From: an uncultured Clostridia bacterium
GTDB lineage: Bacteria > Bacillota > Clostridia > UBA1381
Assembly: GCA_934476675.1 (NCBI GenBank)
Contig: CAKSOE010000007.1
Span: forward strand, 1 to 64,000
Direction of reading: 5' to 3'
DNA: 64,000 nucleotides
Positions 5,653 through 40,374 of the stretch are shown piece by piece (position 1 is the stretch's first letter; every line of letters begins with the position of its first letter). The translations under genes were made by a program, and so were the position numbers. The notes under the pieces were generated by a model. That model made no database searches. It saw nothing but the letters and a program-made list of their open reading frames with translations, and was not told the DNA's origin.

Positions 5653-6732
5653 TTAACGCAGCAGAAAATATGCTATGACTGCAGCCGCAGCATAAAAAAT
5701 CCCCGCAAGTTTTCCGAAATACAGCCATTTTTTTCGTTTATCAACCGGATATTCTCCAACAACCTTGCCTGTCTGTCCGTTGATAGCGAACCGATATATA
5801 TTGTTCATATATTTGATATTAAGCATCCATACCGGAAGCAGAGAATATCGTATTTTGCCGCCGGAAAAGCTGATTTTTATACTTTCGGGAATCACCGCAG
5901 CATAACCGTTTGCTGTTTCCCTGAATACGGAAACGGTGGAATTTTTCACGCGCTCGTTTGCACGTTCTATACTTTCCTCCGCTGAAACATCATATTTATC
6001 TGCCATATACCCCGAAAGATATGCGCCGTTAAATTCAACGGCATCGTCATAGTGAAAAGGTTCTACCGCCTCCATATATGCGTCATCCGCTTTTTTCGAG
6101 CCGTCAACCGGAATATTGGCAAACCCCACACTACCGCTTCTAAAAAGTCTGTAATAGTCTGTTTTGGTATAATTGTAATTGGAATCACTCCAGCTTGTAA
6201 CCCTTTGTGCACCGTAAGTTATTGCCGCGTTGCAGTCACAGTCGAACATCCAGAACGGTACATAAACGCCTGCCATTTCTTCTGTTTTCTTCTTATTCTT
6301 AAATTCGTCCGGCAAAAACGGCGCATTTTTGAAATCAGCCTCAAACGCCGCCATTGCCGCCTTTTTTTCTATTTTAAACGGAATAATATAATCAGGACGG
6401 AGAGTTCCCTCAAACTGTCCCTTGATCACTGCCGCATCGCCGCAGTAGGGGCATACAACTGACCCCATCGTTTCGTCACCGGTTATCTCTGCGCCGCAAG
6501 ATGGGCAGGTATAGCCTGCGAGTTCAACCTCTCCGTCTGTTTCATAGTTTCTCGGTTCGTAGTGTTCCCAGTCATATTTTGACTCTCCCCGCATTTGCGT
6601 TCCGGCATCATCAATTTGCCGCATCGCGTCAAGCTGAAAATCATTACCGCAAGAATCACAGTGCAGCGACTCGTTCTGAAAAATCAGCGAAGCGCCGCAG
6701 CAAGGGCACTTATAGCTTTGTACCGCATCCAT
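5653..6732 (-). CDS. double zinc-ribbon protein with C-terminal transmembrane anchor (B. subtilis YdjG-like)
   Basis: Track start 6771 is TTG; ATG at 6732 with AGAGGAAG RBS gives MDAVQSYKCPCCGASL...CDSCGNDF and a second ribbon CPSCGAEI..CPYCGDAAV; ~200-aa central domain; C-terminal hydrophobic helix LYFGKLAGIFYAAAAVIAYFLL; stop 5 nt upstream of TPM gene start. Confidence 0.55.
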   Translation of the reverse strand: MDAVQSYKCPCCGASLIFQNESLHCDSCGNDFQLDAMRQIDDAGTQMRGESKYDWEHYEPRNYETDGEVELAGYTCPSCGAEITGDETMGSVVCPYCGDAAVIKGQFEGTLRPDYIIPFKIEKKAAMAAFEADFKNAPFLPDEFKNKKKTEEMAGVYVPFWMFDCDCNAAITYGAQRVTSWSDSNYNYTKTDYYRLFRSGSVGFANIPVDGSKKADDAYMEAVEPFHYDDAVEFNGAYLSGYMADKYDVSAEESIERANERVKNSTVSVFRETANGYAAVIPESIKISFSGGKIRYSLLPVWMLNIKYMNNIYRFAINGQTGKVVGEYPVDKRKKWLYFGKLAGIFYAAAAVIAYFLLR

Positions 6733-6804: not shown

Positions 6805-7200
6805 TTATGCTGTCTCTTTATTCTTTGCCGCACCAATTATGTACAGAACCGGAATAATCAGTCCGGTAGCATAGCTAAAAATATTAAAATCGCTGCCAAG
6901 CACATTTGAGGTAACATTGCCGGCTATACTTAAGATTGCCACAATGATACCCATAACCAGGCAGGTTTGTGCCTTTTCGGGTTTATCGCAGTTTTTCACA
7001 CCCATAATTCCGGCAATCAGCTGAAATATTGCGCTTGCCAGAATCAGCGCGCTTGCCAGCATAAGTCCGCCGGCGCTTGTTTCAAGAACCGCCGCCAAAG
7101 CGCCTGATCCGATCAGTGCAATAATCCCTCCGATGATACCAAATACTGCGCCGATAATCATCAGAATCCCTGTGACCTTCAAAAACTTTCTTCCTTTCAT
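6805..7200 (-). CDS. small polytopic membrane protein
   Basis: Perfect RBS AAGGAGG 6 nt upstream of ATG at 7200 (track start 7236 lacks RBS); MKGRKFLKVTGILMIIGAVFGIIGGIIALIGSGALAAVLE... 3-4 predicted TM helices rich in Gly/Ala/Ile. Confidence 0.5.
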   Translation of the reverse strand: MKGRKFLKVTGILMIIGAVFGIIGGIIALIGSGALAAVLETSAGGLMLASALILASAIFQLIAGIMGVKNCDKPEKAQTCLVMGIIVAILSIAGNVTSNVLGSDFNIFSYATGLIIPVLYIIGAAKNKETA

Positions 7201-30316: not shown

Positions 30317-30392
30317 GCGCTATTAGCTCAGTTGGTAGAGCACCTGACTCTTAATCAGGGTGTCCGGGGTTCGAGCCCCCGATGGCGTACCA
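30317..30392 (+). tRNA. tRNA-Lys (anticodon CTT)
   Basis: GCGCTATTAGCTCAGTTGGTAGAGCACCTGACTCTTAATCAGGGTGTCCGGGGTTCGAGCCCCCGATGGCGTACCA: D-arm and T-arm as B. subtilis tRNA-Lys, anticodon loop CTCTTAA, encoded CCA; acceptor stem has two G-U wobbles. Confidence 0.8.
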
Positions 30393-30408
30393 TAACAATA
30401 TTAAACAA

Positions 30409-30444
30409 AACCTCCGAGTGTTTTATTACCTCGGGGGTTTTGCT
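30409..30444 (+). terminator. rho-independent terminator after tRNA-Lys
   Basis: cctccgag tgttttattac ctcggggg tttTgcttTg. Confidence 0.6.
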
Positions 30445-30544
30445 TTGTCTGCATTTTTATTACAAAGGTATTAATTATTTTAGCAATTCAAACATTAAAG
30501 CGAGCAGTTTGTGTATCACGTACACGCTGCCCGCTTATTTATTC

Positions 30545-30574
30545 GTCACAATATATCCCTCTATATATTGTGAC
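30545..30574. repeat. perfect 12-bp inverted repeat (GTCACAATATAT-ccctct-ATATATTGTGAC) near left end of element
   Basis: read directly; candidate recombinase/regulator site or hairpin. Confidence 0.4.
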
Positions 30575-30604
30575 AGCAATAATATATTTTAACACATAAT
30601 CGAC

Positions 30605-31546
30605 CTATTCATCATCGGAACGAATTTCTTTATTATGCCTGTTTTTGGGGTGTCTTTTTAAATAATCACGAAAATCATTTATTTCTTCGATGTTTTCCCT
30701 TTTAGAATATGCTGGATTATAGCCATAATCTAATAACCTTCTAATATATCTATCCTTTAATTTTAGCATTTGATTGTATTCGTACTCTAAACTGCCACTA
30801 TATTTGCAAGTGTACGCATTGTTTTCTGTCTCATTGTCTTTGATAGGCTCTTCTTTTGAAGTTTCTTCTCCCTTTAATATTCTAATCCTTTTTTTTGCTT
30901 TTTTTATACTTTGTTTTAAATGGTTAATGTGGTCATTTTGTTGATTAATGTAATCATTTTGTTGGCTAATGCGGTCATTCTGTTGACGGATTGTTTTGTT
31001 TAACTCATAAATTTTGTCATCACGCTGTTCAAGCAAATTATTTTGTTGCTCGACATATTCATGAAGTCCGCATATTTTTTTATCTTGTGTAAGTAGTTTG
31101 GTTTCACTTTCCTCTTTATTATGCACATACTTATTTTCTTTGAGTTTATGTTTAACACATGCAAAATTAGAACAAATCAGAAAAACTTCATATCTGCCTA
31201 TTTCAGTTATCCATGAATATTTTTCAAAATTATCAAATATAGGCAATAAGGCTTCCCATATTCCGCAACTGCGCCATCTATTAAACTTTCGGCGTAAAGA
31301 ATTAATATTAACTTTATTACATTCAGTAAAATCTTCTGAGTTATTCAGAATATAGATATTCTTTATTCCGTCATTTTCAAGCTTTCGCCAATGCAGCTGT
31401 GAATGATATGCTTGTTTCTCATGCAATAAATATAAAACTGCATTTATTAGCAATAGTTTTTCTTCGGTTTTGTTATTGTTATCTTCTGGCAACACTCTTG
31501 TGATTTGTTCCCATATTTCATCTTCAAAATTTACGTATTTGTACAT
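30605..31546 (-). CDS. hypothetical protein: transposase-type N-terminal HTH (DUF4096-like) + coiled-coil with heptad/7-aa QQND repeats
   Basis: Promoter TTGACT-17-TATACT at 31568-31596 and GAGGTGA RBS favour ATG at ~31546 (MYKYVNFEDEIW...); segment NINSLRRKFNRWRSCGIWEALL resembles the FRKW...G.WE motif of IS4/IS5 DUF4096 HTH; no DDE domain; C-terminal Lys/Glu-rich coiled coil. Confidence 0.5.
   Translation of the reverse strand: MYKYVNFEDEIWEQITRVLPEDNNNKTEEKLLLINAVLYLLHEKQAYHSQLHWRKLENDGIKNIYILNNSEDFTECNKVNINSLRRKFNRWRSCGIWEALLPIFDNFEKYSWITEIGRYEVFLICSNFACVKHKLKENKYVHNKEESETKLLTQDKKICGLHEYVEQQNNLLEQRDDKIYELNKTIRQQNDRISQQNDYINQQNDHINHLKQSIKKAKKRIRILKGEETSKEEPIKDNETENNAYTCKYSGSLEYEYNQMLKLKDRYIRRLLDYGYNPAYSKRENIEEINDFRDYLKRHPKNRHNKEIRSDDE
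30924..30986 (-). repeat. 3 x 21-nt tandem repeat inside CDS (encodes IxQQND(R/Y/H) units)
   Basis: ttaatgtggtcattttgttga / ttaatgtaatcattttgttgg / ctaatgcggtcattctgttga. Confidence 0.55.
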
Positions 31547-31567
31547 TGACTTTATCACCTCAATGCA

Positions 31568-31596
31568 AGTATACCTCATATATAATCAAAAGTCAA
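31568..31596 (-). promoter_or_regulatory. promoter (TTGACT-17-TATACT) for DUF4096-like gene
   Basis: minus-strand cttgact tttgattatatatgagg tatact read directly. Confidence 0.45.
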
Positions 31597-31847
31597 GACG
31601 TGTCCTATTTCAAATTCAATTTTTAAAAAAACCAATCCACCTAAAAAACATTTAGATATTACCTCTGGGAGTTAAAAACTCACCAATGTAAATACACGTG
31701 ATTTTCTCTCCCTAAAAAATAATTAACCCAAGGAGGTAGTACAAATGTGTACAGAGGTAATTTTAAGTACCGCGCAAGCAAAACAAATAGCTTATGATTG
31801 GTACGACATCATTGTAAAAACTATAACAGAAGAAGGAGAGATTGAAA

Positions 31848-32489
31848 ATGAAAAAACAGAAGCAAGTATTTTATAAGAGGAGTTTAGTACAAATGGCAAG
31901 AAAAATGAACGCCAAAAGGAAATGCGAAATTGAGGAGCAGTTAAAAGAGTTACAACAAATTCCGTTACAGCGCCGTTCAAACGGTGAATACATACCATTT
32001 AACTGCGATGACTTCGAGTTAAGAGAATGGTGCGGTAAATTCAACCGCAAACTTCGTAGGTGCAAGGAAGTTATAGAACACCCTATAAACCCGATAATAC
32101 AAACGCATTTGTCGCAATACTATCCGTATAGCAAATCGGACAAGTTATTGTGCGAGTGGTGCAGAAATAAAAATAAAGAAGTTCGTGCTAAAAGCTGTTC
32201 AGAGCCTGCACTCAAGCCGATACTTATATCAGACGGTAAGTATAGGTCAACTGATGAAAACGACGCATTGCTTGTAAAGTGGTGTAATAAATATAACGAC
32301 AAATTGCAAAAAAGCAAGAGCTTTGTTGTAATGCACACAGGCAGTAATGCCCGTCAGCCCCTTTGGTGTAGTAACGGTTATTTCAGTTGTGACGTCAAAG
32401 AAAGCCTGTTATGGAAGTGGTGTATAAAGCGCAACGCTGAAATAAATAAATTATTAGCAGAAAGGAGTGCTTTAAATGACAGAACGTAA
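31848..32489 (+). CDS. hypothetical protein with four W-C-x-K-x-N helical repeats, overlapping Rep start
   Basis: GAAGGAGAG RBS then ATG 31848 (track start is TTG); repeats ELREWCGKFNRKLRR / LLCEWCRNKNKEVR / LLVKWCNKYNDKLQK / LLWKWCIKRNAEINK; 14-nt overlap with Rep ORF; a 43-aa upstream ORF (31745-31876, strong AGGAGG RBS) overlaps its start. Confidence 0.5.
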   Translation: MKKQKQVFYKRSLVQMARKMNAKRKCEIEEQLKELQQIPLQRRSNGEYIPFNCDDFELREWCGKFNRKLRRCKEVIEHPINPIIQTHLSQYYPYSKSDKLLCEWCRNKNKEVRAKSCSEPALKPILISDGKYRSTDENDALLVKWCNKYNDKLQKSKSFVVMHTGSNARQPLWCSNGYFSCDVKESLLWKWCIKRNAEINKLLAERSALNDRT

Positions 32490-33342
32490 GTTGGAATTTT
32501 CAAGCGGTGAGTATTCGCCGCTTGATACAGACAGCAATTCAAAAATTATATTTTTGCCAGACAGCGCAGAAGTCGTAACAGCAAAAAATTCGGGCGGTTC
32601 AACAGCATTATCGGGTATCAAGCGTATTTCAAAGAACGAGTATGTAAAAGTCGAAACAGGCGAAGTATTCAAGTATAATACGAATGCTAACAAGACGGAT
32701 AATACTGTATCAATTAAGAAATCCTTGAACAATCTGCGTAAGCTGATACTGAATAATTTTGTAGAGTTTGAAAGCATTTTTATAACGCTTACCTACAAAG
32801 ATGAAATGTTTGACTTTACCCAAGCGGTTCAGGATTATACAAAGTTTTTTGAAAGCCTGAAAAAGCATTACAATCATTATAATCTTAAATATTTAAGAAT
32901 TATAGAGCCGACCGACAAAGGCAACTGGCATATTCATATGCTGCTAAAACCCGCTGAAAAGGCAGATAAATTTTATATCAGCCAAGAGACAGTTCAAAAC
33001 ATTTGGAAACATGGCTCTGTTAAGGTAGAGCAGATACATAATATAAAGGGATTGGCAAATTACTTTTGTACATACAGTAATGATGATAAAGCTTTACCCG
33101 AAAAGGCAAAGCCCAAGCACGTTAAAAAACAAGAGCGTTGGAAATACTACCCTTATCGTGCGAGGATTTTTGCAAAGTCAAATGATATAGTATATCCCAA
33201 AACGGTAAAAGCTAAGAGAGGACAGGTGGACGAGCTTCTAAAAGACTATAAAAGGGTTTCGGCAAGTACGCTGACTGTTAAGGACAGCGAAACAGGCAGA
33301 GTTGTGAATAAGGTAAATTATGAGCATTACAAAAAGCGGTAA
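32476..33342 (+). CDS. rep: rolling-circle replication initiator (HUH endonuclease Rep)
   Basis: AAAGGAG RBS + ATG; motif 1 FITLTY, motif 2 HUH = NWHIHMLL, motif 3 two-tyrosine YFCTY (YxxxY); 288 aa. Confidence 0.7.
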   Translation: MTERKLEFSSGEYSPLDTDSNSKIIFLPDSAEVVTAKNSGGSTALSGIKRISKNEYVKVETGEVFKYNTNANKTDNTVSIKKSLNNLRKLILNNFVEFESIFITLTYKDEMFDFTQAVQDYTKFFESLKKHYNHYNLKYLRIIEPTDKGNWHIHMLLKPAEKADKFYISQETVQNIWKHGSVKVEQIHNIKGLANYFCTYSNDDKALPEKAKPKHVKKQERWKYYPYRARIFAKSNDIVYPKTVKAKRGQVDELLKDYKRVSASTLTVKDSETGRVVNKVNYEHYKKR

Positions 33343-33588
33343 GCCATTCTATTTAATATATTATTATATAACTCAGTCATTTTACTAACCCCCCCTGCTG
33401 CATACCACAGCTGAATATGAGAGCGAACAAGCAAAAAATAAACTGGCGTATTCGTATGTCAGTTTATTTTTATATACGCATAATGCGCCGTTATTTTAGG
33501 TTATACGCAAGCTTAAAAGCAAAACGGTATTGCAATACTGTAACAACGCAAAGCAAGTGATAAAACAAAAGCTATTGGGTATTACGGC

Positions 33589-33900
33589 TTAGTTGCTTTC
33601 AAGACCCAACAATATATTTACAGCGTGTTGTAAATCAGTATGCTCATGATATGCTTGTATAAGCCTTTTATCATCAGCGCTTAATTCGTTATTATCAAGG
33701 TGAGTGTCAAGAAGCTCACTGGGTGATACGTTTAGGGCATTGCAAATATTAGAAAGCAAATCAACATCGGGTCGGTTTAGACCTTGCTCCCAGTTTGATA
33801 CACGTGAATTAGATACGCCGATTTTATGAGCAAGCTCTTTTTGTGACATATTGTTTTGCTTGCGAAATTTACTTATGCGCTTACCAATCTCATAACTCAT
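33589..33900 (-). CDS. XRE-family HTH repressor (cI-like)
   Basis: HTH_XRE signature MSQKELAHKIGVSNSRVSNWEQGLNRPDVDLLSNICNALNVSPSELL; AGGGAG RBS before ATG ~33900; divergent from cro-like gene. Confidence 0.75.
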   Translation of the reverse strand: MSYEIGKRISKFRKQNNMSQKELAHKIGVSNSRVSNWEQGLNRPDVDLLSNICNALNVSPSELLDTHLDNNELSADDKRLIQAYHEHTDLQHAVNILLGLESN

Positions 33901-33978
33901 TAACATCACTCCCTGCTTATATTATAGCAGAAAAACTTTAAAACGTCAATAAAAATTCAGAAAATATTGAAAAAAGTC

Positions 33979-34030
33979 TTGACATTACAGTTAAACTGAT
34001 ATATAATATTTATAAATACAGTTATGCTGT
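33979..34030 (+). promoter_or_regulatory. consensus promoter TTGACA-17-TATAAT with palindromic operators (ACAGTT half-sites) for cro-like gene
   Basis: cttgaca ttacagttaaactgata tataat; palindromes CAGTTaAACTG inside spacer and ACAGttatgCTGT at 34018-34030 just before RBS AAAGGAG. Confidence 0.55.
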
Positions 34031-34053
34031 AATTTAGAAAGGAGTGATACAGA

Positions 34054-34263
34054 ATGCACGTATATGAAAAGGTACGGGAATACATAACAAGTCATGGTAT
34101 AAAGCAAACGGTTATAGCAAGAAAATGCGGAATATCAACAGCGACATTCAATGCAATTTTAAACGGCAAGCGAACTATGTACGCTGACGATTTGAGAGCA
34201 ATATGCTTTGCGCTTGACGTTAGCCCTGAATTGTTTATTGAATTTCAAAAATTAAGCGCATGA
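34054..34263 (+). CDS. XRE-family HTH regulator (Cro-like)
   Basis: 69 aa; IKQTVIARKCGISTATFNAILNGKRTMYADDLRAICFALDVSPELF; RBS AAAGGAG. Confidence 0.7.
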   Translation: MHVYEKVREYITSHGIKQTVIARKCGISTATFNAILNGKRTMYADDLRAICFALDVSPELFIEFQKLSA

Positions 34264-34284
34264 TTATAAAGGAGTTTTTAGAAA

Positions 34285-34449
34285 ATGAAAGAATTTAAAG
34301 TAACATTTATGGTTGACGGCAAAAGAACCGAAGAATATGTAACGGCTAACGGGGGAAGCGACGCACGTAAAATTATAGAGAAGCGATTTGGTAATTGTAA
34401 AGTAGTGATTATCAATGTACAAGATATAACTAATGGTTTTTATTGCTGA
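34285..34449 (+). CDS. small hypothetical protein (54 aa)
   Basis: AAAGGAG RBS 8 nt upstream; MKEFKVTFMVDGKRTEEYVTANGGSDARKIIEKRFGNCKVVIINVQDITNGFYC; below ORF-track size cut-off. Confidence 0.4.
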   Translation: MKEFKVTFMVDGKRTEEYVTANGGSDARKIIEKRFGNCKVVIINVQDITNGFYC

Positions 34450-34527
34450 TAACTACGGTGCAAGATTAATATTACTAACCACTATGTTTTGAGTTTAGTT
34501 GGTACGTTATTAAAAAGATGAATATAA
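34443..34527 (+). repeat. direct repeat copy A (~85 nt; conserved core TTGCTGATA..TACGGTG..A.ATTAATATTAC ... TTGGT..GT.TTATTAAAAGA)
   Basis: aligned by eye to copy B at 35628-35712; core ~35 nt ~85% identical plus weaker 3' extension. Confidence 0.5.
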
Positions 34528-34555
34528 ATATAGAAAAGTAAGGGGAATTGAAATA

Positions 34556-35563
34556 ATGGATAATTATTGTACTAAATGCGGCAACAAGTTAGAACCAGGT
34601 CAAAAGGTTTGTGCCCGTTGCGGTAATCGAGTTAACGGAACTGTTTTAAATGATTTTGCTGATAAGATAAAAGCTTATGATTATAAAGGCAAAGCAGAGG
34701 AATTAAAAGTCAAAGCCAACGAGACCATGGATAAGGTCAAAAGTTATGATTATAAGGAAAAGACCGACAAAATTGCTGAAACAGTTAAAAATTATGCCGA
34801 TAAAGCAAAAGATGTTTCAGATACGATTATGACCTATGACTATAAGACAGAAAGTGAAAATATAAAGAAAGGCGGCATAAAGTATTTTTGGAATAGGCAT
34901 AAAAAATTGTCGGTATGTGTAGTGTGTTTTATTGCAGTAATTGGCATATTTACATGTGTTAACCACAAAAAAATTACTGTATCAGACAATGAACCAAAAC
35001 AAGAATATAATAGTAATGCGGTTGATGATAATAATAGTATCGTACAAAATAATCGCTTTACTTGTACGAGAACTGAATTTATAAAAAAATATGATGAATT
35101 ACATAACAAATTAGACGATAATCCATATTTAACGGATACTCTTGCTGATTGTAAATATTATACTAGTGAGCCTAATGCAAGTACTTTGGAAATGCAACCT
35201 AACGCATATAAAGAATATATATATGACACAACGTTATATTCATCAGATGATACAAGAGCAAAAAGCAGCGTGAATATTGCTGTCGATAAAAATGATAATG
35301 TGGTTCTTGTTTCGATTTTTAGATTCGGGCATGCGATACAAACAAAAGAAGCAAAACAACATTACATGTATGCAGATTGTACAGCAGCATATATGGCTGT
35401 AACAGGTACGACAAGTATTGATGCAGCCAAGGACGAATTATATGATGTATATTGCTCATCAAAAATAAGAAAAAGAGACAAATATGAGTATGGTTACAAT
35501 GAAAGAGATGATAAAAATGGTAGTTATGACACAGGTTTTTATATAAAAATTATAAATCAGTAA
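34556..35563 (+). CDS. hypothetical membrane protein: N-terminal zinc ribbon, YDYK amphipathic repeats, one TM, ~190-aa extracytoplasmic domain
   Basis: AAGGGGA RBS; YCTKCGNKLEPGQKVCARCGN zinc ribbon; KAYDYKGK / KSYDYKEK / MTYDYKTE repeats; TM LSVCVVCFIAVIGIFTCV; flanked by direct repeats A and B. Confidence 0.55.
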   Translation: MDNYCTKCGNKLEPGQKVCARCGNRVNGTVLNDFADKIKAYDYKGKAEELKVKANETMDKVKSYDYKEKTDKIAETVKNYADKAKDVSDTIMTYDYKTESENIKKGGIKYFWNRHKKLSVCVVCFIAVIGIFTCVNHKKITVSDNEPKQEYNSNAVDDNNSIVQNNRFTCTRTEFIKKYDELHNKLDDNPYLTDTLADCKYYTSEPNASTLEMQPNAYKEYIYDTTLYSSDDTRAKSSVNIAVDKNDNVVLVSIFRFGHAIQTKEAKQHYMYADCTAAYMAVTGTTSIDAAKDELYDVYCSSKIRKRDKYEYGYNERDDKNGSYDTGFYIKIINQ

Positions 35564-35627
35564 GTTAATTTAAAAACATGCTGGCTTAATTACGCTATGA
35601 AACATTTATTAGAAGATTTATAATTGC

Positions 35628-35712
35628 TGATATTAATTACGGTGTAGAATTAATATTACAAGAGGTATTATATCCAAGTTTAATTGGTGTGTATTATTAA
35701 AAGACAAAGATA
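35628..35712 (+). repeat. direct repeat copy B
   Basis: taattgctgatattaattacggtgtagaattaatattacaagaggtattatatccaagtttaattggtgtgtattattaaaagac; matches copy A. Confidence 0.5.
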
Positions 35713-35753
35713 CTATATACATTGTAAAACGCAGATTAATACAATAAATTAAG

Positions 35754-35782
35754 AAGTACCTTTTACATAAGAGGTACTTTTT
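35754..35782 (+). terminator. rho-independent terminator
   Basis: aagtacct-ttacataag-aggtactt + TTTT. Confidence 0.45.
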
Positions 35783-35810
35783 AATTCAGGAAAAAGCGAG
35801 GTGAGGGACA

Positions 35811-36023
35811 ATGAAAATATTATTTAACGAAAGCGGAGAAAGCAAAACTATAATGTCATATAGTGAGCAGGTAGAAGAAATGCTTAATACTTTGGAAACA
35901 GGCATAGCGGATATGAAACAGTCAAACGGTTTGTACGATTCAAGTATTTTTGTTTGTAAGTTAATCAATTTTAGAAACGGTATAGACGATTTAATTGATG
36001 ATTTAGCTTTTAATTGTATATGA
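35811..36023 (+). CDS. small acidic hypothetical protein (70 aa)
   Basis: GGTGAGGGA RBS; followed by clean terminator; MKILFNESGESKTIMSYSEQVEEMLNTLETGIADMKQSNGLYDSSIFVCKLINFRNGIDDLIDDLAFNCI. Confidence 0.45.
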   Translation: MKILFNESGESKTIMSYSEQVEEMLNTLETGIADMKQSNGLYDSSIFVCKLINFRNGIDDLIDDLAFNCI

Positions 36024-36037
36024 TAATCCTCCCCAAG

Positions 36038-36067
36038 ACAGCCGCCCGACAAGCGGCTGTTTTTTTG
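36038..36067 (+). terminator. rho-independent terminator
   Basis: acagccgc-ccgacaa-gcggctgt + TTTTTTTG. Confidence 0.65.
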
Positions 36068-36174
36068 CGTTTGTTTAAGTGTACTTTTATAAATACTGCA
36101 ATCGGCGGTGATTTTTAAAGATATTTGCGTTTTTAAAGATATATAAATAATTTATAAATATTTTTTAAAACAGG

Positions 36175-36203
36175 TTGACTTTTACAAAGAAATATCATAT
36201 AAT
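36175..36203 (+). promoter_or_regulatory. consensus promoter TTGACT-17-TATAAT upstream of recombinase genes
   Basis: ttgact tttacaaagaaatatca tataat read directly. Confidence 0.55.
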
Positions 36204-36240
36204 ATACGTGTAAGAAAAAAATAAAGGGAGCGTATGCAAT

Positions 36241-36867
36241 ATGAAAAATTTAATATTCGGATATGTTCGTGTTTCTAGTGCAGACCAAAACGAAGAACGG
36301 CAACTGCAAGACTTGAAAAATGCAGGAGTTGAAGAAAGAAACATTTTTATAGATAAAGCAAGCGGCAAAACCTTTGAGCGTGATAGCTATAAAGCTATGA
36401 TTAGCAGATTAAGAGAGGGCGATTTGGTTGTTATTGCTTCATTGGATAGACTGGGAAGAAGTTATATAGAAATTCAAAAGCAATGGAGCTATATTACGCA
36501 GACAATAAAAGCAGATATTAAAATTTTAGATATGCCGCTGCTTGATACAAGCACAGCTACTGAAAATATAGACAGACGATTTATAGCTGATTTGGTTTTA
36601 CAGATATTATGTTACACAGCAGAGAAAGAAAGAGAGAACATTCGCAAGCGACAGCGGCAAGGAATTGATGTAATGCCGATTGTTGACGGTCAAAGGGTAT
36701 CGACAAAAACAGGCAGACCGACAGGACGACCGAGAGCAGTTAAGCCCGACAACTGGAACGAAATATATACACGCTGGCAAAACAAAGAAATAACAGCCGT
36801 AAAGGCTATGGAGATTTTGAATTTAAAGCCGAATACTTTTTATAAATTTGCGGCAAGTGAGAAATAA
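36241..36867 (+). CDS. small serine recombinase (resolvase/invertase family, 208 aa)
   Basis: N-terminal resolvase catalytic domain (IFGYVRVSSADQNEERQ..; ..GDLVVIASLDRLGRS) + C-terminal HTH; ATG start. Confidence 0.8.
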   Translation: MKNLIFGYVRVSSADQNEERQLQDLKNAGVEERNIFIDKASGKTFERDSYKAMISRLREGDLVVIASLDRLGRSYIEIQKQWSYITQTIKADIKILDMPLLDTSTATENIDRRFIADLVLQILCYTAEKERENIRKRQRQGIDVMPIVDGQRVSTKTGRPTGRPRAVKPDNWNEIYTRWQNKEITAVKAMEILNLKPNTFYKFAASEK

Positions 36868-36895
36868 AAACTATGATATGTAAGGAGTAACAACT

Positions 36896-38422
36896 ATGTA
36901 TGCAGTAATATACGCACGATACAGCAGTGATAAACAACGTGAAGAATCTATTGAGGGGCAATTGGAAGTATGCCGTAAATATGCCGAAAGCAACGGTTAT
37001 GAAATTATTGATACATATATAGACCGTGCCAAAAGTGCAAAGACAGATGACCGCCCATATTTTTTAAAGATGATTAAGGACAGTGAAGAAAAACATTTTC
37101 AAGCTATAATTGTATATCAGCTTGATAGATTTTCACGCAACAGATATGATAGCGCAAAATATAAAACTATTTTAAAGAGAAATGGGGTTACGGTTTATTC
37201 GGCAAATGAAAATATTGCCGATAATGCAAGCGGAGTATTGCTTGAAAGCCTTATAGAAGGACTATCAGAATATTACAGTGCCGAATTAGCCGAGAAAGTT
37301 AATCGGGGTATGAATGTTAATGCTAAAAAATGTCTTTCAAACGGCGGCACTACCCCTCTTGGTTACAAGATAGAAAATCATAAATATGTTATAGATAAGC
37401 AAATGGCACCCGTTATAAAAGAAATATTTGAAAAATATGCCGACGGTGTAACAATAAAAGAAATTTGCGCCGATTTGAACGCCAGAGGTATTAAAAAGCC
37501 AAACGGAACTACATTTAATAAAAATTCATTTAGCGCTATATTAAAAAACAGAAAGTATTTAGGGATATACATATTTAGGGATATAGAAAAACCCGGTGGT
37601 ATGCCGCAAATAATTGATGAAGATTTATTCAATAAGGTTGCAGAAAGAATGAAAGCAAACAAATTAGCTCCCGCCCGAACAAGAGCAAAAGCCGAATATT
37701 TGCTTACGGGCAAGCTGTTTTGCGGCTACTGCAAAGAAATGATGATAGGACACAGTTCAAATAAAACGAGTAAGAATGGTATAATATATAATTATTATAA
37801 ATGCAAAAACAGTGGCAGAAGTAAATCGTGTCATAAGAAAATGGTGATGAAAGATTATATAGAGGACGCTGTCATTGATGAATGCCGTAAAATTCTTACA
37901 CCCTCAAATATAAAGAAAATAGCAAAGGAAGTATCGAAAATATCAAAAAATTATGATGATACCACTGAATTGAAAAGACTGGATATGTGTGTAAAAGCAA
38001 AAGAAGCTGAAATAGAAAATCAAATGAAGTCGCTTCGACTTTGTAGTGTTGATTCGGTACGTAACATGATTTTCAGCGATTTAGAAATTCTATCAAAAGA
38101 ATTGGAAAATTTAAAATTACAGCTTACCAAAGAGCAAAGTCGCCATAAAATTATAACTCCCGAACAGGTCGAAGCGTTTTTAACTGCCTTATCAAATGGA
38201 AATATAAATGATATAGTATATTGCAGAACGCTTATTAAAGTATTGGTAAATAAAATCTACTTGTATGATGATAAAGTCACGATAACATTTAATTCGGGCG
38301 ATGAAGAAGTGACAATCACCGACAAACTGCTCTCAAAAATAGAAACAGGATTAAATAGTGATTCAGTTTGTTTATTAAACCATGAGGTGTACCACGAAAC
38401 ACCGCATAAACACTACGTTTAA
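36896..38422 (+). CDS. large serine recombinase (508 aa)
   Basis: TAAGGAG RBS; MYAVIYARYSSDKQREESIEGQLE catalytic Ser motif, recombinase domain, Cys-rich zinc-ribbon region (CGYCKEMMIGHSS..YYKCKNSGRSKSCHKK), C-terminal coiled coil. Confidence 0.85.
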   Translation: MYAVIYARYSSDKQREESIEGQLEVCRKYAESNGYEIIDTYIDRAKSAKTDDRPYFLKMIKDSEEKHFQAIIVYQLDRFSRNRYDSAKYKTILKRNGVTVYSANENIADNASGVLLESLIEGLSEYYSAELAEKVNRGMNVNAKKCLSNGGTTPLGYKIENHKYVIDKQMAPVIKEIFEKYADGVTIKEICADLNARGIKKPNGTTFNKNSFSAILKNRKYLGIYIFRDIEKPGGMPQIIDEDLFNKVAERMKANKLAPARTRAKAEYLLTGKLFCGYCKEMMIGHSSNKTSKNGIIYNYYKCKNSGRSKSCHKKMVMKDYIEDAVIDECRKILTPSNIKKIAKEVSKISKNYDDTTELKRLDMCVKAKEAEIENQMKSLRLCSVDSVRNMIFSDLEILSKELENLKLQLTKEQSRHKIITPEQVEAFLTALSNGNINDIVYCRTLIKVLVNKIYLYDDKVTITFNSGDEEVTITDKLLSKIETGLNSDSVCLLNHEVYHETPHKHYV

Positions 38423-38462
38423 GCGGTGTTTTTATTTTTGTAAAAATCCTAAAATTTCACTT

Positions 38463-38510
38463 CTGACTATATTTTGACTATCAGAGCAAAAATTTTTGAC
38501 TATATTTTTG
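38463..38510. repeat. three direct TGACTATAT(T)TT repeats downstream of large serine recombinase gene
   Basis: ctgactatattttgactatcagagcaaaaatttttgactatatttttg. Confidence 0.4.
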
Positions 38511-39522: not shown

Positions 39523-40374
39523 ATGGTAGATATAATCGGAGTAAAATTTAAGCAGTCGGGTAAAATGTACTATTTTGACCCGATGGGATTTGAAATACAC
39601 GAGGGCGACCACGTAATCGTGGAAACAAGCCGCGGCGTGGAATACGGCAACGTGGTTTCCGGCAGAAAGCAGATTGATGCCAATGTGCTGTCAAAGCCGT
39701 TAAAAGGCGTGTTGCGCATTGCTACGAAAGAGGACGAGCAGCGCCGTTTGGAGGTTAAGCAAAAGGAAAAAGATGCTTTTTCAGTGTGTCTTGAAAAAAT
39801 CAGAGAACACAAACTGGAAATGAAGCTGATTGACGCAGAATACACTTTTGATTGCAGTAAACTGCTTTTCTACTTCACCGCCGACGGAAGAATAGACTTC
39901 CGCGAACTGGTAAAAGACCTTGCAACAGTATTCAGAACAAGAATCGAACTGCGTCAGATAGGCGTCAGAGACGAATCCAAGGCAATCGGCAGTATAGGCG
40001 CGTGCGGCAGAAATCTGTGTTGTTCACAGTTTCTTGACGAATTTGTTCCCGTATCGATTAAAATGGCAAAAGAACAGGGGTTATCCCTTAATCCCACAAA
40101 AATTTCCGGTGCGTGCGGCAGACTGATGTGCTGTCTTAAATACGAACAGGATATGTATGAGGAACTGTCTGATGAGGCTCCCAAGCAGGGCGATACGGTG
40201 GATACGGAATACGGCGAAGGTGTTGTTGAGTCAATATCGCTGCTCCGAAGGATTGCAAAGGTTAAGTTTGAAACAGAAGCTGAAAAAACCATTCGCGACA
40301 TAACTTTTGACGACATAAAACCCGTCAAAGCGCGAAAAAAACACAAGCAATCCCACAAAGAAAAGAAAGATTAA
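39523..40374 (+). CDS. ricT: PSP1-domain 'stage 0 sporulation' protein RicT/YaaT
   Basis: MVDIIGVKFKQSGKMYYFD...; paired Cys motifs GACGRNLCCSQFL and GACGRLMCCLKYEQD characteristic of YaaT Fe-S ligands. Confidence 0.85.
   Translation: MVDIIGVKFKQSGKMYYFDPMGFEIHEGDHVIVETSRGVEYGNVVSGRKQIDANVLSKPLKGVLRIATKEDEQRRLEVKQKEKDAFSVCLEKIREHKLEMKLIDAEYTFDCSKLLFYFTADGRIDFRELVKDLATVFRTRIELRQIGVRDESKAIGSIGACGRNLCCSQFLDEFVPVSIKMAKEQGLSLNPTKISGACGRLMCCLKYEQDMYEELSDEAPKQGDTVDTEYGEGVVESISLLRRIAKVKFETEAEKTIRDITFDDIKPVKARKKHKQSHKEKKD

Follow-up and report, generated by a model that had tools for sequence, protein, structure and literature searches.

The gene for a 335-aa zinc-ribbon membrane protein in the window (the whole 64-kb stretch of DNA that was analysed) lies between two imperfect direct copies of a sequence of ~90 nt. 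The upstream copy is part of the leader of the gene, and the downstream copy is on balance likely to be a relic, left by duplication of that leader or by import of an allele into a recombination-prone cargo slot of a small mobile element. The two are probably not a pair of recombination sites. The repeat is genuine, its downstream copy accompanies one allele of the gene only, all variants of the region meet at a common right junction and the repeat is independent of the Rep, integrase and resolvase modules of the elements that carry it.

The element and its zinc-ribbon protein gene

The gene belongs to an integrated, low-GC element of ~8 kb that occupies about 30.4-38.5 kb of the window and adjoins tRNA-Lys; the ends are approximate, at about 30.39 and 38.43-38.5 kb. 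Its genes encode a rolling-circle Rep (PF23343/REP_ORF2-G2P, E=1.5e-18; phrog ‘rolling circle DNA replication initiation’), a divergent XRE/Cro pair, a 54-aa protein, the Zn-ribbon protein, a 70-aa protein, a Sin-like recombinase and a 508-aa serine integrase with the domains of the large serine recombinases (PF00239, PF07508 and PF13408). Judged by these integration/excision and rolling-circle-replication (RCR) initiator modules within a small integrated element, it is a putative integrative mobilizable element (IME). The IMEs of Firmicutes form a class that combines a relaxase or Rep related to rolling-circle initiators with a serine or tyrosine integrase (PMC5704250). The present element resembles them in size, in its position next to a tRNA gene, in a GC content below that of its flanks, in its RCR-type Rep and passenger genes and in its modular evolution, in which relatives have exchanged one integrase module for another (serine, 508 aa, versus tyrosine, 401 aa). 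It differs in having an extra Sin-like small recombinase as a constant core gene and a passenger slot that holds an unannotated family of YDYK-repeat Zn-ribbon membrane proteins. Neither L008 nor L009, two contigs of element length, shows the overlap between its ends that a circular form would leave.

The 208-aa small serine recombinase (36241..36867, plus strand) is of the Sin/Bin type, as the original prediction had recognized in calling it a resolvase: it carries PF00239 plus HTH_7, and among solved structures it is most similar to Sin/Bin3 (E=5e-24). The gene has its own promoter (36175-36203), with the motif TTTTTAAAGATAT present twice upstream (36112-36142). In the relatives L034 and L045 the stretch upstream of the gene is replaced along with the recombinase allele.

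The Zn-ribbon protein gene (34556..35563, plus strand) encodes an N-terminal Zn ribbon, where the earlier call holds (PF13240, E=6.7e-6), YDYK-type repeats, the conserved motif ENIKKGGIKYFWNRHKKLS, one transmembrane helix and a hypervariable C-terminal domain, as read from Pfam and a family alignment. The gene is no free-standing cassette: its neighbourhood shows it to be a conserved member of a module that comprises an XRE regulator, a small protein, the YDYK-repeat membrane protein and a protein of ~60-70 aa. Only the C-terminal half of the membrane protein is hypervariable within this module, a pattern that suggests a role in surface interaction or exclusion under diversifying selection. 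The AF2 model gives this C-terminal domain a pLDDT of about 80-94; a Foldseek search of the model against the PDB found no match with E<=0.001, and PADLOC found no match to a defence system. Protein-seeded searches of IMG/VR with the Zn-ribbon protein, Rep and the 70-aa and 54-aa proteins found nothing, and blastn of 33900-36100 against plasmid and phage collections found no match. A metagenome scan with the family alignment returned only two distant loci (L019 and L020), which are uninformative.

The repeat pair and its setting

Smith-Waterman alignment of 34442-34532 (copy 1) with 35623-35719 (copy 2) gives 71 identical columns of 100, with 12 gap columns, and MAFFT gives an identity of 70%. 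The alignment score of 46 compares with 22.3 ± 3.0, and a maximum of 36, in 500 dinucleotide-preserving shuffles, ~7.9 sd above their mean. When copy 1 was compared with all 300-nt tiles of the window, copy 2 scored 44-46, the best unrelated tile scored 32 and nothing like the repeat appeared upstream of the resolvase gene. The 64-kb window has exactly two occurrences of the 22-nt core TACGGTGNANNATTAATATTAC, against an expectation of 0.03. An exact scan of IMG/VR and 185,579 species genomes gave only two and three hits, respectively (giant-virus MAG contigs, Colwelliaceae and Bacteroidia), and these matches outside the window, limited to 22-27 nt, are judged to be chance. Two AT-rich intergenic stretches might be thought alike by accident, given a local GC content of ~0.28-0.33 and the many short AT-rich repeats of the region; because no shuffle among the 500 reached the score, and because of the core count, chance similarity is effectively refuted and its probability is close to nil.

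The direct repeats that the original prediction placed around the gene are real, with an identity well away from the figure near 50% and a core far from the many sites that it had named as grounds for abandoning the claim. Several of its details need amendment. Copy 2 starts at 35623/35624 (TTGCTGATA) and not at 35628. The blocks described as a well-conserved core show no more clustering than is expected of random decay to 71% identity (column-shuffle p = 0.08, 0.47 and 0.49), and the longest identical run between the copies is 11 nt. The gene and its RBS do lie between the repeats, but the terminator does not; the strong hairpin with a T-run, at 35747-35786, lies downstream of copy 2. The recombinase gene does start 529 nt past copy 2 (and 1.7 kb from copy 1), but the 70-aa gene and two terminators intervene.

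Copy 1, delimited by local alignment, is the left part of a 106-nt spacer, or leader, on the plus strand between the 54-aa ORF directly upstream (34285..34449, plus strand) and the Zn-ribbon gene. The stop codon of that ORF falls within TTGCTGA, the bases with which copy 1 begins. The RBS as read from the sequence, AAGGGG (34540..34545, plus strand), stands 10 nt before the ATG and outside the repeated part. Four natural variants of copy 1 are found, one of them with an 11-nt insertion after ATTAATATTAC, and L049 has a fifth; leaders of different elements differ by ~5% or less, leaving aside one 11-nt indel. The 54-aa gene is lineage-restricted, with a single homologous cluster among 5.8 billion proteins. 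The leader would be a young sequence and not a conserved site, because the 54-aa gene is without homologues outside the lineage and because the distant relative L048 has an unrelated leader of 58 nt. A promoter scan finds a consensus promoter, TTGACA-17-TATAAT, with a 12/12 match at 33979..34007 (plus strand), and there is no terminator-like site between it and 35747. It is the likely source of a transcript running through cro, the 54-aa gene, the leader, the Zn-ribbon gene and copy 2 to the terminator.

The 3' untranslated tail of the Zn-ribbon gene contains copy 2 (35623..35719, plus strand), a paralogue that has diverged from the leader. Copy 2 follows an AT-rich spacer of 59 nt (35564..35622, plus strand) that is specific to the 335/334-aa allele and absent from L013, L015, L046 and L048, and the terminator scan lists no site between the stop codon (35563) and copy 2. 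Perfect 9-nt inverted arms at 35630-35638 and 35648-35656 enclose an odd-length spacer of 9 nt; copy 1 has no left arm, owing to a 3-nt gap. Neither copy is folded more stably than shuffles on either strand (fold z-scores of +1.4, -1.4 and +2.2; for the plus strand, +1.44 for copy 1 and -1.36 for copy 2, and for the minus strand, -0.23 and -0.93), and the folds differ between the copies. Beyond copy 2, the right junction AATACAATAAATTAAG is followed by the intrinsic-terminator hairpin and T-run (35738..35792, plus strand; arms 35747-35765 and 35768-35786), with the stretch 35700-35830 folding at -27.8 kcal/mol (z -6.0). L048 keeps this hairpin through changes on both arms. The 70-aa gene (35811..36023, plus strand), of unassigned function, is the conserved downstream partner in every variant.

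Module exchange and the origin of the second copy

Elements that are 96-100% identical to the window in both flanks carry different cargo. L013 and L036 have a 328-aa allele, L015, L032 and L034 have a 295-aa allele and L046 has an SLH protein with a 224-aa protein, and all of them are without copy 2. DNA identity to these allelic elements is 96-100% up to about 34740-35136, inside the gene, where it drops to 36-84%, and the divergent segment extends to about 35715-35737, copy 2 included. Copy 2 is identical in all contigs with the 335/334-aa allele and absent from every other variant. L013, with an identical resolvase, has only copy 1; L046 has neither copy, and nor does L048. All variants, L048 included, rejoin at AATACAATA(A/T)ATTA and the terminator hairpin. 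Identity between L015 and the window resumes at TATACATTG (35716), and it is there, at 35719, that the homology between the two copies ends.

The block 33900-35777 moves between backbones. The window and L008 are 100% identical over it, though the elements differ at 111 positions elsewhere, and L045 has the same block with identical copies on a tyrosine-integrase backbone, with an 81%-identical resolvase (39/208 substitutions) and a replaced region upstream of that gene. Such sharing is modular exchange by homologous recombination, as read from the pattern of identity. Swaps of Rep (30% identity), of the integrase type (serine or tyrosine) or of the resolvase allele (81%) leave the repeat as it is.

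In the reading that we favour, the stretch from cro to the conserved terminator would be a cargo slot whose content relatives exchange through homologous recombination in the conserved flanks. Copy 1 is the native intergenic spacer ahead of the Zn-ribbon gene, and copy 2 is a diverged paralogue of it that travels with the variable 3' half of the 335/334-aa allele. We infer that two leader-gene units were once arranged in tandem, whether in the present lineage or in the allele's donor, and that either the second gene was then lost or a crossover occurred at the TATA/TATACATTG point, fusing a remnant of a leader to the shared terminator region. Copy 2 would not be a recent self-duplication, because it has diverged by 29% from copy 1, where leaders differ by ~5% or less, and because it fits the long-form leader of L013/L015 (TATTATA.CCA segment; score 51) slightly better than the window's own copy 1 (score 46). 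It may be transcribed within the cro-operon mRNA and yet have no role of its own, and with 71% identity and identical runs of at most 11 nt it would be a poor substrate for homologous deletion. The suggestion in the original prediction that the repeats are footprints of cassette acquisition survives in this modified form: copy 2 is part of the variable segment that sets the 335/334-aa allele apart from the 328-aa, 295-aa and SLH-cargo variants.

Mosaicism of mobile elements such as prophages and integrative and conjugative elements (ICEs) is well established, and the relics of tandem duplication or allele replacement found in them share with the present case a variable segment between highly conserved flanks, nested junctions in different relatives and a diverged extra intergenic copy that is dispensable in sister elements. 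Nothing essential differs, although the tandem intermediate or donor was not found here: none of the relatives examined had a leader of the copy-2 type or two leader-gene units in tandem. Other observations also weigh against a relic. Copy 2 is invariant across its contigs, so there is no population variation by which constraint could be gauged; the 9-nt inverted repeat in copy 2, and TAATATTAC and CTGATA in both copies, could in principle be protein sites; and the repeat length of ~90 nt resembles the 86-bp res site of Sin (PMC2428073). The compared relatives are close kin, and a functional copy 2 may have been lost in some of them.

Alternative roles and wider meaning

That the copies form a res-type or cassette-type site pair, at which the Sin-like 208-aa recombinase would precisely excise or exchange the 1.18-kb segment, was the first proposal of the original prediction and is highly improbable. 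The copies are like the res sites of Sin and the beta recombinase in length, in direct orientation and in having a Sin-like recombinase 0.5 kb away, but the 86-bp res of Sin has an inverted site I, an HU/IHF spacer and a head-to-tail site II, and further copies of the binding motif lie inside each site of ~86-114 bp (PMC2428073). Neither copy here shows the four-motif architecture: internal direct or inverted pairs of 10-mers (at least 8/10 matches) number 18 in copy 1 against 18.6±7.7 and 32 in copy 2 against 30.2±9.3, which is the chance level, and none is common to the two copies at homologous positions, so that no accessory subsites emerge. The crossover subsite of a res site consists of two inverted recombinase-binding motifs of ~12-13 bp around a central 2-bp overlap and is present in both partners, which are normally near-identical. 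The inverted arms of copy 2 and the CTGATA in block A, which presumably resembles a gamma-delta half-site, favour such a site; the palindrome is nevertheless restricted to one copy, with a 9-nt spacer, and the copies are only 71% identical. Nor does the repeat co-vary with the recombinase, being unchanged beside the 81%-identical resolvase of L045 and single beside the identical one of L013, while other relatives have no copy at all. The deletion form that the original prediction had proposed to look for, with the 54-aa gene joined straight to the terminator and the 70-aa gene, was seen in none of the assembled contigs examined in two context look-ups, and no other recombination product was seen among them. 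Integron attC cassettes offer a further parallel, namely a single, promoter-less-looking gene between imperfect repeats near a gene for a site-specific recombinase, but the enzymes here are serine recombinases and not the tyrosine enzyme IntI, no attC-type hairpin forms (fold z about 0 to +2, whichever strand is folded), what is repeated, in direct orientation, is a 5' leader, and relatives exchange sequence inside the coding region instead of at the repeats. An invertible segment between the inverted repeats 35714-35736 and 36123-36145 was discarded, as no context examined shows the inverted orientation and the left arm is missing in L013 with its identical recombinase. A DGR-like TR/VR pair was also ruled out, there being no reverse transcriptase and both copies being non-coding.

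The other proposal, that the copies are duplicated promoter/operator modules serving the Zn-ribbon gene (copy 1) and the 70-aa gene (copy 2), is unlikely. Each copy does precede a gene start, copy 1 holds TTGCTG-18-TAATAT and TTGGTA-18-TATAAA, weak promoter-like matches abut copy 2 (35597-35624 and 35716-35745) and the 9-nt palindrome is operator-like. A sigma-70 promoter has its -35 and -10 hexamers 16-18 nt apart, however, and by eye the same pairs are 21 (TTGCTG/TAATAT) and 24 nt (TTGGTR/TATAWA) apart in copy 2; the scan lists no promoter inside either copy, and the natural leaders of L013 and L049 turn TTGGTA into CTGGTG and TATAAA into AATAAA. A terminator separates copy 2 from the 70-aa gene, which in L013, L015, L046 and L048 follows the preceding gene at a distance of 63-129 nt and is not accompanied by copy 2 (nor, in L046 and L048, by copy 1), and the consensus cro promoter, with no intervening terminator, would suffice for expression. 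Action of the copies on RNA, as a binding site for a protein, an sRNA target or a processing site in the 5' leader and 3' tail of one mRNA, fits their probable presence on the cro-operon transcript (promoter 33979, first terminator 35747-35786). It is quite improbable all the same: the folds are no better than shuffles, the whole window has only two tRNAs as Rfam matches at the gathering threshold, no riboswitch or attenuator leader with a shared stable fold appears, copy 2 is dispensable in sister alleles and L046 and L048 lack the sequence altogether. Nick or origin sites (dso/oriT) for the HUH rolling-circle Rep, with replication starting at one copy and terminating at the other to free the gene as a single-stranded circle, were considered and rejected as barely credible. 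Both copies contain TAATATTAC, which we take to be the nonanucleotide at which Reps of the geminivirus type cut, together with CTGATA(TTAAT), a presumed likeness of the phiX174/pC194 nick region (phiX-like CTGATATTAAT), and the element does encode a REP_ORF2-G2P Rep. Against this, the leader does not track the Rep type: it is about 98% identical in L034 and L015, where Rep is only 30% identical, and L046, whose Rep is the same (98% over its last 92 residues), does not carry it. The motifs are absent from L025/L026 and L048, lie outside any stable hairpin loop and are AT-rich 9-mers in a region of ~30% GC. There is a very slim chance that the copies are weak functional cis sites, either for the Sin-like recombinase as an atypical res or for the HUH Rep (nick at TAATATTAC or CTG/ATA), that the gene is an excisable or exchangeable single-gene cassette in the IME and that the copy-less relatives are products of exchange. 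This would make it a new system of single-gene cassettes, with a serine resolvase or an HUH Rep as the driving enzyme.

With copy 2 taken as a relic of the leader, module shuffling in small integrative elements would leave behind diverged duplicate spacers that mimic a pair of recombination sites beside a recombinase gene, a caution for scans made from sequence only. Copy 2 itself would be ordinary, and its surroundings more interesting than the repeat. They point to an unannotated family of ~8-kb elements of gut Clostridia in which Rep, integrase and cargo modules appear to recombine freely, and to an uncharacterised family of membrane proteins, with a Zn ribbon, YDYK repeats and one transmembrane helix, whose predicted outward-facing C-terminal domain is hypervariable.

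The repeat and its surroundings

Two direct copies of TTGCTGATA..TACGGTG.A..ATTAATATTAC, starting at 34443 and 35624, can be read around the gene for a 335-aa zinc-ribbon membrane protein (34556-35563). The original prediction gave them as ~85 nt long and placed the start of the second at 35628, which does not hold. Local alignment extends copy 1 to 34442-34532 and copy 2 to 35623-35719 (71 of 100 columns identical, 12 gap columns). The alignment scores 46, against 22.3±3.0 and a maximum of 36 for 500 dinucleotide-preserving shuffles; the identity by MAFFT is 70%. Exactly two occurrences of the 22-nt core are present in the 64 kb, against an expectation of 0.03, and elsewhere in the window the 300-nt tiles reach 32 at most when scanned with copy 1. 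The repeat is therefore real, and is neither an artefact of AT-richness nor a generic motif. Perfect blocks alternate with a poorly matching middle; though striking by eye, this pattern can be accounted for by random decay (p = 0.08, 0.47 and 0.49 on shuffling the columns).

Upstream lies a divergent pair of XRE genes, at 33589-33909 on the minus strand and, on the cro side, at 34054-34263 on the plus strand. Among the consensus promoters between them is TTGACA-17-TATAAT (33979-34007). A 54-aa ORF follows (34285-34449), its stop codon within the first block of copy 1, and then a 106-nt spacer, the leader, holding copy 1 and the RBS. A further 59-nt spacer separates the 335-aa gene from copy 2. 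A scan found no terminator-like site between the stop codon of that gene and copy 2; the terminator, a strong hairpin with a T-run, has its arms at 35747-35765 and 35768-35786 (35700-35830 folds at -27.8 kcal/mol, z -6.0). The repeats thus bracket the gene and its RBS, as had been proposed, but not its terminator, which is downstream of copy 2. Most simply, the cro operon gives a single transcript, with copy 2 within its 3' untranslated tail. A 70-aa gene (35811-36023) starts only ~25 nt past this terminator (35738-35792 region), so it must be expressed through terminator read-through or from an unrecognised promoter. Next come a second terminator (36035-36063) and, at 36175-36203, a promoter of their own for the two recombinase genes, of which the first (36241-36867) encodes the 208-aa enzyme and the second (36896-38422) the 508-aa large serine recombinase.

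A rolling-circle Rep gene of REP_ORF2-G2P type (32476-33342), an adjoining tRNA-Lys(ctt) gene (30317-30392), a GC content of 0.28-0.39 at 30.5-38.5 kb versus 0.40-0.47 outside, and a chromosomal PSP1 gene starting beyond, at 39523, identify ~30390-38500 as an ~8-kb low-GC integrated element of the integrative-mobilizable type, with approximate boundaries. Its make-up agrees with the reviewed class of integrative mobilizable elements encoding RCR-type initiators or relaxases (PMC5704250). Two contigs from metagenomes, 8080 and 8144 nt long, comprise nothing but the element; no terminal overlap was found in them. A 324-aa ORF on the minus strand (30605-31579; 313 aa as annotated in related contigs) contains a coiled-coil-like repeat rich in QQND, NDRISQQNDYINQQNDHIN, and matches DUF4096, the N-terminus of IS4/5 transposases, below threshold. 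A 246-nt non-coding stretch (33343-33588) that separates rep from the XRE repressor gene has a 17-nt hairpin (33434-33450/33455-33471) and is a plausible site for the element's real origin of replication or transfer. Its counterpart in the related contig L034 is unrelated, as is the L034 Rep.

The cargo slot and its alleles

The exact proteins of the locus are found on many gut-metagenome contigs, and both intergenic regions were taken from all of these, giving four leader variants and seven downstream variants. Copy 2 is identical in every contig with the 335-aa allele or its 334-aa stop-codon variant, and is absent from elements otherwise 96-100% identical to the window on both flanks. The slot is occupied instead by a 328-aa allele (77% protein identity; L013 and L036), by a 295-aa allele (41%; L015, L032 and L034) or, in L046, by genes for an SLH-domain protein and a 224-aa protein replacing the 54-aa gene, the leader and the zinc-ribbon gene. 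In all of these, the last cargo gene directly abuts AATACAATAAATTAAG, behind which come the terminator hairpin and the 70-aa gene. The more distant L048, also without copy 2, encodes a membrane peptide of 52 aa and a 197-aa allele, and its 58-nt leader is unrelated. All variants converge at AATACAATA(A/T)ATTA and the hairpin (window 35738-35792), including L048, which has the same right junction and a stem preserved by changes on both arms (L048 1273-1322). By identity profile, the divergent segment runs from within the coding sequence (about 34740-35136) to about 35715-35737, and identity of L015 to the window resumes at TATACATTG (35716), at most 3 bases from the end of the homology between the copies (35719). 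Copy 2 therefore forms the right end of a variable segment that belongs to the allele, and is no conserved feature of the module.

Relatives exchange other modules too: Rep (288 versus 331 aa, 30% identity), integrase (serine, 508/517 aa, versus tyrosine, 401 aa) and resolvase (alleles of 81% identity), while the cro-to-terminator block stays near-identical. The window and L008 differ at 111 positions, yet none of these falls within 33900-35777 (100% identity), so the cro-to-copy-2 block travels between backbones as a unit, as is expected of homologous recombination among mosaic elements.

The 335-aa product belongs to an unannotated family of 31 clusters, with loci in the window (34556-35563) and in L013, L015, L016, L021, L024, L025, L027 and L048. 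Its members have an optional N-terminal zinc ribbon, two to five KxYDYKxKAEE repeats, the invariant motif ENIKKGGIKYFW and one transmembrane helix. Genes that recur beside them are a divergently oriented XRE gene and those for SLH-domain proteins and a 58-72-aa protein, with a sigma factor gene at times. The C-terminal domains differ entirely among members, a pattern that suggests an exposed and diversifying domain. AlphaFold (AF2) models it confidently as alpha/beta (pLDDT about 80-94); Foldseek found no PDB match to this model at E<=0.001, and neither PHROG nor PADLOC holds a family matching the product. Around a homologous gene (P0005) at an unrelated chromosomal locus, L016 has a short direct repeat, GCCCGAATTATTGCA[A/G]ATT (5922-5940 and 6809-6827), of which the upstream copy doubles as the left arm of a terminator hairpin; cargo insertion beside a member of the family may have left a further footprint here.

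Candidate functions of the copies

Of the three readings originally offered, a pair of resolvase sites for the adjacent recombinase has its attractions. The nearest solved structures to the 208-aa protein are Sin and Bin3, and at ~90 nt the copies are close in length to Sin res, an 86-bp arrangement of inverted site I, HU/IHF spacer and head-to-tail site II (PMC2428073). The internal motifs speak against it, direct and inverted 10-mer pairs being at shuffle level (18 versus 18.6±7.7 and 32 versus 30.2±9.3). The sole good palindrome, ATATTAATT-N9-AATTAATAT (35630-35656), with a spacer of odd length, is confined to copy 2, where its 9-nt arms are perfect; copy 1 lacks the left arm owing to a 3-nt gap. 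Nor is a deletion form, with the 54-aa gene joined directly to the terminator region, present among the contigs read. The repeat itself follows none of the element's enzymes. L045 has both copies, copy 2 identical to the window's and copy 1 differing at three leader positions, with a tyrosine integrase and a resolvase differing at 39 of 208 residues; L013 has a resolvase identical to the window's and copy 1 only. Leaders of L034 and L015 are about 98% identical to the window's with a Rep only 30% identical, and L046, whose Rep is of the window's type (98% over the last 92 residues), has neither copy. Like the resolvase-site reading, that of duplicated promoters fails the tests applied to it. 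The promoter scan finds no site within either copy, the hexamer pairs that the eye picks out are spaced by 18 nt in copy 1 and by 21 or 24 nt in copy 2, and the hexamers are altered in natural variants (CTGGTG in L013, AATAAA in L049).

Two other functions were considered. Both copies contain TAATATTAC (34467-34475 and 35651-35659), which matches the geminivirus-type Rep nonanucleotide, and CTGATA, which resembles the phiX174/pC194-type nick motif; CTGATATTAATTAC in copy 2 resembles the phiX174 origin core. A Rep nick site is disfavoured because the sequence does not co-vary with Rep type and the motifs are absent from L025, L026 and L048. The copies have no Rfam match as an RNA element; their fold z-scores are +1.4, -1.4 and +2.2 for the plus strand, -0.2 and -0.9 for the minus strand.

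As a binding or res site of the recombinase itself, a stronger candidate than the two copies is TTTTTAAAGATAT, present twice (36112-36124 and 36130-36142, 18 nt apart) just upstream of the recombinase promoter, since in L034 and L045 this stretch is replaced jointly with the resolvase allele. A 23-nt inverted repeat, 78% complementary (35714-35736/36123-36145), lies beside the invertase-like recombinase gene and encloses the 70-aa gene along with the terminators on either side of it. It is probably due to chance, as no contig has the segment inverted and L013 lacks the left arm.

Origin of copy 2

What survives of the original proposals, in modified form, is a footprint of acquisition. Copy 2 diverges from copy 1 by 29%, versus about 5% or less among sister-element leaders, bar one 11-nt indel. 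It scores 51 against the long-form leader of L013 and L015 and 46 against the window's own shortened copy 1, the difference being due to a shared TATTATA.CCA segment. Copy 2 is therefore no recent self-duplication but a leader paralogue that is either old or imported. The simplest account would place two leader-gene units in tandem, either in the window's lineage or in the donor of the 3' half of the 335-aa allele. The second gene would then have been lost, or a crossover would have occurred at the TATA/TATACATTG point, so that what remained of the leader became joined to the shared terminator region. The tandem step is inferred, the intermediate not having been found among the relatives. As homologues of the 54-aa gene are confined to its own lineage, the whole leader sequence is evolutionarily young.

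RecA-dependent deletion requires a minimal length of homology. Since the longest identical run between the copies is 11 nt at most, they should be poor substrates on these general grounds, which fits the lack of deletion forms. Were the copies genuine enzyme sites they would be interesting, but we consider this very improbable. The repeat is an ordinary product of recombination between modules, and the element that carries it is a new member of a class already known.
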